Of a stretch of DNA of 64,000 nt, positions 37,868-40,008 are shown one piece after another. A model generated the notes under the pieces. It was not told the DNA's origin. It did no database searches and saw nothing but the letters and a program-made list of their open reading frames with translations. This DNA comes from Escherichia coli O127:H6 str. E2348/69 (GTDB taxonomy: Bacteria; Pseudomonadota; Gammaproteobacteria; Enterobacterales; Enterobacteriaceae), in NCBI RefSeq assembly GCF_000026545.1, contig NC_011601.1; one strand, written 5' to 3'. Position numbers and translations under genes: made by a program. How positions within the stretch are numbered: the stretch's first letter is position 1; each line of letters begins with the position of its first letter.

Positions 37868-37900
37868 AAAACGCCGACCAGTGGTCGGCGTTTTGCTTTT
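37868..37900 (+). terminator. Intrinsic terminator of the rpsF-priB-rpsR-rplI operon
   Basis: CGCCGACCA-g-TGGTCGGCG perfect 9-bp stem followed by TTTTGCTTTT. Confidence 0.85.
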
Positions 37901-38206
37901 AAGTGATAAAAACCGCAGAAACAGACGTTCCCTCCATAAATCTCTTGTTATTCCTTTTATAAAAAGTTCGCAGTACCCATACCTGGCCCCCAGCCTCGCC
38001 GCTGGTAGTTCGTGTCATGTTTTTTACGCGTAAAACACGACAAAAGCATCAATACAGCGATCGTCTCCCTTGTATGATAATAAAAACAATATGTTATATA
38101 TGAATGTGCTGTTATTTTATTGTTTTTATATATAAAAGGATAAAATATCATCACTTTCGTAATCTTGAACGCTTTGCAGGTGCGTTCAATCCAATAAATG
38201 CTAATA

Positions 38207-38227
38207 TTATGGCTATCATAGCCATAA
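38207..38227. promoter_or_regulatory. Perfect 21-bp palindrome, candidate operator upstream of the HipB-like gene
   Basis: TTATGGCTAT-C-ATAGCCATAA (10-bp arms, 1-bp centre) 20 bp upstream of ORF start 38248; flanked by two ~24-bp near-identical direct repeats (38132-38155 and 38223-38246) containing TAAAAT. Confidence 0.5.
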
Positions 38228-38247
38228 AAAGATAAAATATTATCACT

Positions 38248-38727
38248 ATGGGTAAAAAAACAGCACCGTTACTCCCTTATACGAATCAGATGCTTAGTGA
38301 ATTTGGTGAGCGGCTGAAACTTGCTCGTTTACGACGCAGGCTTACCGCAAAGCAAGTTGCTGAACGTGCTGGGATGTCGCCAATAACATTGCGCTCTCTG
38401 GAGTCAGGAAGTGCAGGGGTCACGATAGGGGCATATTTGTCTGTGATGCAGGTTTTGGGCCTGGAAACGGATTTAAATAAGCTTGCAGCTGAAGACGACT
38501 TAGGGCGTCAGCTCCAGGATTCCCGTTTGATTAAAAAAAGAGGGCTTTCTCGTTCATCAGGTAAAAATGAAGAAGGTATTCAGACAGACCCTTTTCAAAC
38601 GAGGTATGAGAAAGAAGGTTTACTCACCACGGATTTAACAGCACTGGCAGAAGGCTCAACGCCATCTATTACAGGAGAAACATCAACCTCTCTTGCAGCA
38701 CTATTAAAACCGATAAAAAACCGTTAA
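38248..38727 (+). CDS. HipB-like Xre-family HTH protein with long low-complexity C-terminal extension (candidate antitoxin/regulator)
   Basis: 159-aa ORF; [44 protein letters not shown]; start uncertain (alternative ATG at 38290); immediately upstream of HipA-like ORFs. Confidence 0.7.
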
Positions 38728-38740
38728 AAGGAAATTAATT

Positions 38741-39001
38741 ATGGCATTAATCGGAGTGTATGCGGATTGGGAAGGCCTGGATGGTCCGGAGCGGATTGGT
38801 TATTTACACAGTCGCCGCACTCGGACGCGTGAGATATTTGAGTTTGAGTACGATAAAAAGGCGCTTGCAGATCCTTCACTTAATTTCATTCAGTTAGATC
38901 CTGAAATAATGTTGTATGAGGGAGCACAGTACCCAATTCCTCCAAAGGATAAATTTGGTGCATTTAGTGATTCCTGCCCGGATCGTTGGGGCGTATGCTA
39001 A
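38741..39001 (+). CDS. HipA N-terminal-subdomain-like ORF (HipS-like), or 5' part of a frameshifted hipA-family gene
   Basis: 86-aa ORF ending FSDSCPDRWGVC*; resembles HipA N-subdomain; overlaps the next ORF by 16 nt in another frame. Confidence 0.6.
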   Translation: MALIGVYADWEGLDGPERIGYLHSRRTRTREIFEFEYDKKALADPSLNFIQLDPEIMLYEGAQYPIPPKDKFGAFSDSCPDRWGVC

Positions 39002-40008
39002 TGAAGCGTCGTTTTGAGAGGGATATTCGAGACGGGTTATGTGATAAAGACTCCCACCTTTATGAGTCTGATTATCTACTAGGTGTTCATGATCTTTATC
39101 GGGTTGGGGCTCTTCGATACAAACGTGAAGACGCTGGAGAGTTTCTTGATAATCGCATTGATGTTGCAGCCCCACCATTTACCGAAATAGCGAGTCTGGA
39201 AAGGGCTAGCCGGGCAATTGAAGAAGATCCTGATAATAAAGAGCTAATGGGGCAAAAATGGTTAAGAATGCTAATCGCTCCGGGGGGATCATTAGGGGGG
39301 GCACGTCCGAAAGCCAGTGTTGTTGATGAAGCTGGGCATCTCTACATCGCTAAATTTCCCAGTGTAAAAGATGAGTATGATGTTGGTGGATGGGAAATGG
39401 TCGTTAATGCACTTGCTGTTGGCTGTGGACTGAATGTTGCACCTGCTCAGGCGCATAAATTTGCCAGCAATTACCATTGTTTTATGGTTCGTCGTTTTGA
39501 CCGCACTAATGCGGGAAGGCGTCTGCATTTTGCTTCGGCTATGACACTAACCAGGCATCAGGATGGTGAAGATGCCTCTACAGGTGTGAGTTATCTGGAA
39601 TTAGCAGATGTTCTTATCAGGCATGGCGCGCAGACTAATACTGATCTTAAGGAACTCTGGTCCAGGATTGTTTTTAATATTCTTGTTTCTAATACCGATG
39701 ACCATTTACGTAATCATGGATATATCTTGATACCGGGAAAAGGTTGGCGGCTTTCTGAGGCATATGATTTGAATCCTGTTGCCAGGTCTGACGGTCTAAA
39801 ACTCAATATTACAGAAAATGATAATGCACTTGATTTGGAATTAGCTCGAGAAGTTGCGGAGTATTTTCGACTTGGTTTGACAGAAGCAGATGACATTATT
39901 GCTAATTTTAGAGGGATTGTCAGTCAGTGGCGAATCATTGCCGAGCGTCTTCGATTACCTGGTCGTGAGCAAGAGTTAATGGCAGAGGCGTTCAGGGGGG
40001 CAATTTAG
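38986..40008 (+). CDS. HipA-family Ser/Thr protein kinase core (HipT-like toxin candidate)
   Basis: 340-aa ORF (TTG at 38986; in-frame ATGs at 38995, 39001); Gly-rich loop PGGSLGGARPK, catalytic-loop-like SNTDDHLRNHG, AYDLNP motif, corresponding to HipA SVAGAQEK / DGHAKN / YDIIS. Confidence 0.7.
   Translation: MGRMLMKRRFERDIRDGLCDKDSHLYESDYLLGVHDLYRVGALRYKREDAGEFLDNRIDVAAPPFTEIASLERASRAIEEDPDNKELMGQKWLRMLIAPGGSLGGARPKASVVDEAGHLYIAKFPSVKDEYDVGGWEMVVNALAVGCGLNVAPAQAHKFASNYHCFMVRRFDRTNAGRRLHFASAMTLTRHQDGEDASTGVSYLELADVLIRHGAQTNTDLKELWSRIVFNILVSNTDDHLRNHGYILIPGKGWRLSEAYDLNPVARSDGLKLNITENDNALDLELAREVAEYFRLGLTEADDIIANFRGIVSQWRIIAERLRLPGREQELMAEAFRGAI

Follow-up and report, generated by a model that had tools for sequence, protein, structure and literature searches.

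Which of the repeated elements directly upstream of a HipB-like gene in Escherichia coli O127:H6 str. E2348/69 would serve in its control, and to what kind of system does the gene belong? The elements lie in an AT-rich intergenic region of 350 bp between the rplI terminator and a two-gene HTH-kinase module, with a GC content of 35% compared with 51% for the window, that is, the whole 64,000-nt stretch of DNA analyzed here, to which all positions refer. A sequence-only reading had singled out a perfect 21-bp palindrome as a plausible autoregulatory operator, together with two near-identical 24-bp direct repeats. Based on the comparisons below, we consider it probable that positions 38106–38247 form an autoregulatory array of promoter and operators, with four candidate HipB boxes, that belongs to a widespread long-HipB family of hipBA-type toxin-antitoxin (TA) modules.

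Genomic setting and layout of the probable control region

On its upstream side, the region is bounded by the rpsF-priB-rpsR-rplI operon and its terminator (37868–37894). In K-12, yjfZ occupies the corresponding position and similarity ends directly after the rplI terminator, which places the module in strain-variable DNA. The array region was found in 1,045 of 5,426 complete E. coli genomes, in 909 of them at an identity of at least 99%, and E. albertii has an intact kinase gene at the same rplI-adjacent site. The approximately 200 bp that lead from the rplI terminator to the distal module (37895–38100) are conserved among E. coli carriers; this stretch holds no ORF of note and includes a GC-rich patch, CCCCCAGCCTCGCCGCTGG, at about 37988–38006. 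The published hipBST locus of O127:H6 was considered as the identity of the module and rejected, as the gene sizes and overlaps differ (PMC6581861) and because the split in the kinase gene is a 1-nt deletion in a G-run. The features of the region and of the two genes are listed by position.

38106–38116, plus strand: distal Box1', GTGCTGTTATT; PWM score 14.6 bits, one mismatch to GTGCTAWTATT
38132–38155, plus strand: first direct repeat (DR1), containing distal Box2' (top strand AATATCATCAC)
38144–38154, minus strand: distal Box2', the 11-mer with two mismatches, 38 nt from Box1' as in the proximal module
38165–38189, no strand: additional inverted repeat with perfect 8-bp arms, TTGAACGC-N9-GCGTTCAA, in variable sequence that separates the modules
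38198–38214, plus strand: proximal Box1, ATGCTAATATT, with its inner half ATGGCT; PWM score 17.7 bits
38199–38200 and 38202–38207, plus strand: TG and TAATAT, the extended -10 reading of Box1 (TG-c-TATTAT in Pseudomonas)
38207–38227, no strand: perfect palindrome TTATGGCTAT-C-ATAGCCATAA (10+1+10), 20 bp from the ATG
38224–38247, plus strand: second direct repeat (DR2), comprising an A-tract (38226–38230) and proximal Box2
38233–38238 and 38236–38241, plus strand: -10-like hexamers TAAAAT and AATATT in DR2
38236–38246, minus strand: proximal Box2 11-mer; PWM score 15.3 bits
38248–38727, plus strand: HipB-like HTH-XRE gene, 159 aa here and 163 aa when intact (ST131)
38741–40008, plus strand: HipA-like kinase pseudogene, ORFs of 86 and 340 aa; HipA_C match at 5.4e-47

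The two direct repeats are real, matching at 22 of 24 positions with a start-to-start distance of 92 nt, although the second copy runs from 38224 to 38247 and not, as first given, from 38223 to 38246. It abuts the hipB start codon, as had been noticed, its last base being 38247 and the ATG beginning at 38248. In ST131 and AHB10 strains, DR1 and DR2 match at 23 of 24 positions, DR2 being unchanged. The 16-mer core GATAAAATATYATCAC, allowing up to three mismatches, has four matches where 0.77 are expected, and both exact ones are DR1 and DR2. The repeats look like functional units and not like chance similarity.

The motif GTGCTAWTATT, with at most one mismatch, has just three matches in the 64-kb window, namely at 38106 (plus), 38198 (plus) and 38236 (minus), and a two-mismatch site at 38144 (minus), within DR1, completes a plus-minus-plus-minus array with offsets of 38 and 38 nt and a period of 92 nt. 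Based on this mapping, DR1 and DR2 are the right-hand boxes (Box2' and Box2), with a few flanking bases, of two tandem 49-bp modules; each is the right half of an inverted module whose left partner (38106–38116 and 38198–38208) the sequence-only reading had not seen. Distal Box1' forms an inverted repeat with DR1, and distal Box2', which is degenerate in E. coli, reads AATATTAGCAC in Serratia, Salmonella and Yersinia. Written in a 16-bp format, the proximal boxes of E. coli are TGCTA-ATATTA-TGGCT (38199–38214) and AGATA-AAATAT-TATCA (38230–38245), 31 bp apart, or about three helical turns.

Two further elements lie nearby. The inverted repeat at 38165–38189 is predicted to form an RNA stem; E. 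albertii has a degenerate form of it, other genera do not conserve it, and it probably stands outside the conserved system. An 11-mer-like site on the minus strand, GTGCTGTTTTT (38256–38266), falls within hipB codons 3–7 (KKTAP) and is complementary to distal Box1', its two mismatches being at chance level for the window, although Shewanella hipBA likewise has one operator, the fourth, within the ORF.

The HipB-like protein and the conservation of boxes and palindrome

The gene downstream of these elements is indeed HipB-like, with Pfam matches to HTH_31 (6.2e-11; 42.9 bits, cutoff 27) and HTH_3 (1.9e-6) and with a HipA_C kinase gene next to it. Its product matches PDB entry 9U9G (E = 5e-31, residues 1–105), named by the depositors 'XRE family transcriptional regulator, HipB'. 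Nonetheless, the NCBIfam model TIGR03070 (couple_hipB) does not reach its cutoff, the E. albertii ortholog scoring 28.8 bits against 71.65, and the two results together indicate a distinct long-HipB subfamily. Members of the HTH family are 155–185 aa long and occur in Enterobacterales, Pseudomonas, Burkholderia, Achromobacter, Azotobacter and others. In the protein alignment, the N-terminus and the entire HTH region are almost invariant from residue 1 between E. coli and Burkholderia, and are followed by a variable linker and then by a conserved C-terminal LAALLKPxKKP motif. Long HipB proteins also have an invariant N-terminal extension of 17 residues, and their C-terminal motif past the variable linker can be written more fully as S-x-x-L-A-A-LLKPxKKP. 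The linker is probably disordered, and the C-terminal motif is likely a kinase-binding or degradation signal. Our literature search found no paper on the 9U9G HipB or on an operator of long HipB proteins, nor did the literature searched contain GTGCYAWTATT as an operator consensus of this subfamily.

The upstream regions were footprinted in 80 orthologous loci plus those of E. albertii, Salmonella, Enterobacter and Yersinia, aligned by MAFFT; an ungapped, ATG-anchored profile was dropped, as it was blurred by indels of 1–3 nt. Across these taxa, which include Enterobacterales, Pseudomonas, Burkholderia, Achromobacter and others (80+ loci), the 65 nt before the ATG align as aaGTGCTAwTATTyTGGC, about 15–20 variable nt ending in an A-tract, GaAGGAATAwTrGC, 2–3 nt, and the ATG. 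The conserved unit is the 11-mer GTGCTAWTATT, arranged as an inverted pair, GTGCTAWTATT-N27-AATAWTAGCAC, in a 49-bp module that ends 1–2 nt before the ATG; the Pseudomonas pair, for instance, is GTGCTATTATTC ... GAATAATGGCAC, again as inverted copies. A PWM built from Box1 only finds 8.3 sites per kb in the 300 nt upstream of the genes compared with 0.015 per kb in adjacent coding DNA. Relative to the ATG, 74 of 84 loci have its plus-strand site at -50/-49 and about 48 of 84 have its minus-strand site at -12/-11 (11-bit threshold), with a constant offset of 38 nt; counted by consensus (at least 8 of 11 matches), the proximal Box2 is present in 74 of about 80 loci.

Of the loci, 53 also have a distal module, with the 38-nt offset in 52 of these, and none of the 79 coding control windows has such a module. 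Other Enterobacterales have a distal pair that is cleaner than their proximal one, reading GTGCTAATATT-N27-AATATTAGCAC. The alignments thus establish the sequence architecture, the geometry and the conservation of the array. The distance between the distal and proximal modules varies from 65 to 156 nt across loci, and its helical phasing was not significant when unique values were used; this variable, unphased distance argues against a rigid looped complex. In sequence logos, gTGCyAwTATTc and a weaker ..GC after it are common to the four box classes, that is, a strong outer and a weak inner half-site, and the candidate boxes fit a 16-bp 5-N6-5 pseudo-palindrome, TGCnA-N6-TnGCA. An almost invariant HTH region fits a conserved cognate operator.

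The palindrome at 38207–38227 is perfect, as originally reported, and belongs to one of just three loci in the 64-kb window with perfect palindromes of this kind (arms of at least 10 bp, spacer of up to 3 nt); the remaining two loci hold GC-rich hairpins, the one at 37870–37892 being the rplI terminator. Could the palindrome itself be the operator, with one HipB dimer on TTATGGCTAT/ATAGCCATAA and the direct repeats acting as two alternative promoters? Its rarity, its position 20 bp from the ATG and its invariance in the three E. coli lineages compared all suit such a role, as do the 8-5-8 version in E. albertii, which keeps the outer 8 bp of each arm, and the occurrence of TTATGGCCATAA at the palindrome position in Erwinia rhapontici. 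However, its left arm is the conserved 3' part of proximal Box1 (..TATTATGGC), and its right arm falls in the spacer that varies between genera. In the upstream alignments, the palindrome is confined to Escherichia and absent from Salmonella, Serratia, Yersinia, Enterobacter, Pseudomonas and Burkholderia. Since the HTH domain is nearly invariant across orders, its cognate site is expected to be so too, which favors the flanking 11-mer boxes, conserved in every lineage, over a palindrome whose right arm is not conserved outside Escherichia. The order of the half-sites in the palindrome (TGGCT..AGCCA) is, in addition, opposite to that in the conserved boxes. We therefore regard the palindrome as an improbable operator in its own right and read it instead as a feature, specific to Escherichia, that elaborates on the right half of proximal Box1. 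What stands of the original proposal is that the region is very probably autoregulatory; the conserved elements in it are the 11-mers and not the palindrome.

The hipB start codon, promoter and leader

The start codon itself is firmly placed. It is an ATG in 84 of 84 loci, and in E. coli the ATG at 38248 is the first possible start past an upstream in-frame stop, leaving no possible in-frame start upstream. Because the N-terminus is conserved from M1 and that stop precedes it, ATG 38248 is the real start, and the earlier suggestion of a true start further downstream is refuted.

How transcription reaches this start is less clear-cut. On the plus strand between 38100 and 38247, scanning with a simple sigma-70 model detected no canonical -35/-10 pair. 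An AATAWT hexamer is found in nearly all loci, at -12 to -7 (Enterobacterales type) or -11 to -6 (Pseudomonas type); it is part of Box2 and ends 6–7 nt before the A of the ATG, and no good -35 element accompanies it. Three Burkholderia loci carry an insertion of 4 nt. The hipB gene of E. coli has no Shine-Dalgarno (SD) sequence (-0.9 kcal/mol, compared with -5.6 for the adjacent hipA), and the same holds for 40 of 84 loci (mean -0.6), while the remaining 44 have an AGGA 10–11 nt upstream that is part of Box2; overall, hipA SDs are stronger than those of hipB (p = 4e-5). A leaderless or very-short-leader hipB transcript, as first raised, or an SD-less one is plausible on this sequence, although the AGGA of the Pseudomonas-type Box2 is a possible weak SD and favors a leadered transcript in those loci.

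Two promoter readings are possible from the hexamers. Box1 could act as an extended -10 element with transcription starting near 38214, giving an A/U-rich, SD-less leader of approximately 33 nt; alternatively, the AATAWT of Box2 could be the -10 element of a leaderless mRNA that starts at the A of the ATG. Leaderless transcripts of paaR2 and lambda cI have been demonstrated experimentally in E. coli (PMC8630535), and in Burkholderia regulators are overrepresented among leaderless transcripts, which carry a TA-rich -10 immediately upstream (PMC4603805). A more far-reaching possibility, which we regard as unlikely, is that the long-HipB family has a conserved, lambda-PRM-like leaderless promoter from Enterobacterales to Burkholderiales, at which HipB bound to Box2 (approximately -9) would repress and HipB bound to Box1 (approximately -42) could activate, yielding a concentration-dependent, possibly bistable switch. 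The center of Box1 at approximately -42 is a class II activator position, and no -35 element is found there.

The same elements might instead act at the level of RNA, the palindrome and/or pairing between Box1 and Box2 forming a 5'-UTR hairpin that controls translation of the SD-less hipB. As RNA, the palindrome hairpin is predicted at -9.9 kcal/mol (z = -3.6), the full leader folds with z between -2.8 and -3.5, and in a transcript from 38214 the right arm of the palindrome pairs with the UAUGG of the start codon. In register, the 11 positions of Box1 and Box2 are complementary in 85% of cells of a 40-sequence alignment, compared with 32%–66% when the boxes are slid, and changes on both sides occur in 21 cells compared with 12.4 in shuffles. 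Against this, the two central Box1:Box2 positions are unpaired in 15–18 of 40 sequences, so the complementarity looks like that of two copies of one consensus and not of a maintained helix, and an RNA helix between the boxes is disfavored despite its high overall complementarity. The palindrome, for its part, is not conserved outside Escherichia, no relevant Rfam family was matched (search at E <= 1), and a transcript beginning at Box1 or at the ATG would lack most of the structure. Regulation through such a hairpin is thus highly improbable. Separately, in a transcript from about 38214, the right arm GCCAUA (38221–38226) is predicted to pair with UAUGG (38246–38251) at -7.3 kcal/mol (z = -3.5); in a longer transcript, the left arm could hold the right arm, a possible alternative-pairing switch that would be confined to Escherichia.

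In the operator-array reading, which we prefer, each of the four candidate HipB-binding boxes would be a 5-N6-5 site of approximately 16 bp that combines GTGCYA as its strong outer half-site with the AT-rich core AWTATT. The boxes would form two tandem 49-bp modules, each with inverted boxes whose 11-mers are 38 nt apart and whose 16-bp forms are about 31 bp, or about three helical turns, apart; the proximal module, ending 1–2 nt before the hipB ATG, would carry the promoter. That boxes and promoter overlap is suggested by the -10-like hexamers that lie inside the boxes. Bound to these boxes, dimers of HipB would repress transcription, probably in company with HipA in loci with an intact kinase; HipB on Box2 would block RNA polymerase or elongation, and HipB on Box1 would occlude or contact the polymerase. 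We infer HipB binding, repression by that binding and the position of the transcription start from the sequence pattern. By analogy with K-12, the simplest reading would be two pairs of boxes, each box bound by a single HipB dimer; since the inner half-sites are weak and the boxes pseudo-palindromic, the stoichiometry may be one dimer per box or a larger complex per module.

The kinase gene and comparison with known systems

Across about 80 orthologous loci in other species, an intact HTH gene of approximately 165 aa is paired with a HipA-like kinase of approximately 423 aa; about 75 of 80 loci have the intact kinase gene directly after the HTH gene, the two often overlapping by 4 nt (ATGA), and the kinase orthologs begin M-x-x-I-x-V-Y-A-D-W. 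In a PDB sequence search, the C-terminal part of the kinase matches HipT structures (E about 1e-8), and no match to K-12 HipA was obtained at E < 1e-3. The kinase family appears nearer to HipT, a TrpS kinase, than to K-12 HipA. In Enterobacter cloacae, a second tryptophanyl-tRNA synthetase gene (333 aa; TIGR00233 trpS, 216 bits, cutoff 177) lies directly upstream of the long-hipB/hipA module (L087:281-1279, also in L088). A regular association of trpS with the module was considered and rejected, as the gene is there in Enterobacter only and in none of the other 82 loci; the Enterobacter neighbor may hint at the target of the kinase or at a resistant spare TrpS.

Both genes of E2348/69 are labeled frameshifted pseudogenes by PGAP/RefSeq, and the module is decaying in this strain. 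In the HipB-like gene, an apparent 1-nt loss in an A-run (38715–38720) alters the C-terminus from ..KKPLKGN to ..KNR, and the gene is intact in ST131 and in most inspected E. coli carriers. The kinase gene is split by a 1-nt deletion in the G-run at 38988–38991, with G4 here compared with G5 in ST131 and AHB10 and GGGGA in E. albertii. ST131 and AHB10 keep G5 and are frameshifted elsewhere in the gene, so the kinase is frameshifted in all three inspected E. coli genomes, and hipA has decayed independently in separate E. coli lineages. Given that E. coli retains the HTH gene with its control region while the kinase is frameshifted, the HTH protein may persist there as an orphan autoregulated repressor. 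In E2348/69 itself, where both genes are frameshifted and distal Box2' is degenerate, the array may be partly relict.

Those same signs of decay, together with the position of the locus in variable DNA right after the rplI terminator where K-12 has yjfZ, could be taken to mean that the repeats are functionless leftovers beside a dead TA module, whether a duplication scar, an insertion site or the remnant of a mobile element. However, dozens of genera share the four-box architecture, with the same register to the start codon, intact genes and unrelated genomic surroundings, and within E. coli the HTH gene is mostly intact and the region is conserved in 909 genomes as given above; we consider this explanation extremely improbable.

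Autoregulation through operator arrays sets the balance of toxin to antitoxin in HipBA systems, which are models for antibiotic persistence. The analysis here defines, from sequence, the likely consensus of the operators and their four-box geometry in a large and little-studied long-HipB/HipA subfamily in many Proteobacteria, and flags a conserved SD-less, possibly leaderless, hipB start. About 1,000 complete E. coli genomes, including E2348/69 and ST131, keep the HTH gene and its control region. These results are of use for annotation and for work on HipB proteins of the 9U9G type, while the known principles of TA regulation are unchanged.

The closest model is hipBA of K-12, in which four palindromic HipB operators, O1–O4, spaced by 10, 21 and 10 bp, form two pairs (PMC4150777, PMC8262856). 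As in K-12, the antitoxin gene of HTH-XRE type comes first and that of a HipA-family kinase next, with four operator-like boxes in two pairs upstream, and the presumed mode of action is likewise autorepression by HipB with or without HipA. Unlike in K-12, the consensus here is GTGCYA, an AT-rich core and ..GC, with an N6 spacer where that of K-12 is 2 bp longer (PMC4150777); the boxes are inverted within each pair and combine a strong outer with a weak inner half-site, and the last of them ends at a start codon that has no SD. At approximately 165 aa, long HipB is also about twice as long as K-12 HipB, with its conserved N-terminal extension and C-terminal LLKPxKKP, and the PDB sequence search detects no close relation of the kinase to K-12 HipA. 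Shewanella oneidensis hipBA, with four GTGTA-N6-TACAC operators (PMC4150777), shares with the present array the number of copies, a GTG..A outer half-site that resembles GTGCTA and a last operator that reaches the hipB start, and would also share its candidate 16-bp 5-N6-5 format. However, the Shewanella operators are true palindromes at an equal spacing of 34 bp, the fourth lying inside the ORF, whereas the boxes described here form two inverted 49-bp modules at a variable distance.

With lambda cI (PRM) and paaR2 of the paaR2-paaA2-parE2 system of O157:H7 (PMC8630535), the long hipB genes have in common an HTH regulator without SD, an AT-rich, -10-like hexamer that ends 6–7 nt before an obligatory ATG and, as the hexamers inside the boxes suggest, operators that overlap the promoter. 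In those two systems, transcription has been demonstrated to start at the ATG, whereas for long hipB a leaderless start is suggested by the sequence and the alternative -10 in Box1 would give a 33-nt leader. [quoted passage not shown] It is nonetheless a different locus, as the ORFs of 86 and 340 aa derive from one broken 423-aa kinase and have no HipS/HipT arrangement. Set beside these systems, the array is best read as an ordinary kind of self-regulating switch that would have its own operator consensus and an SD-less, possibly leaderless, start.
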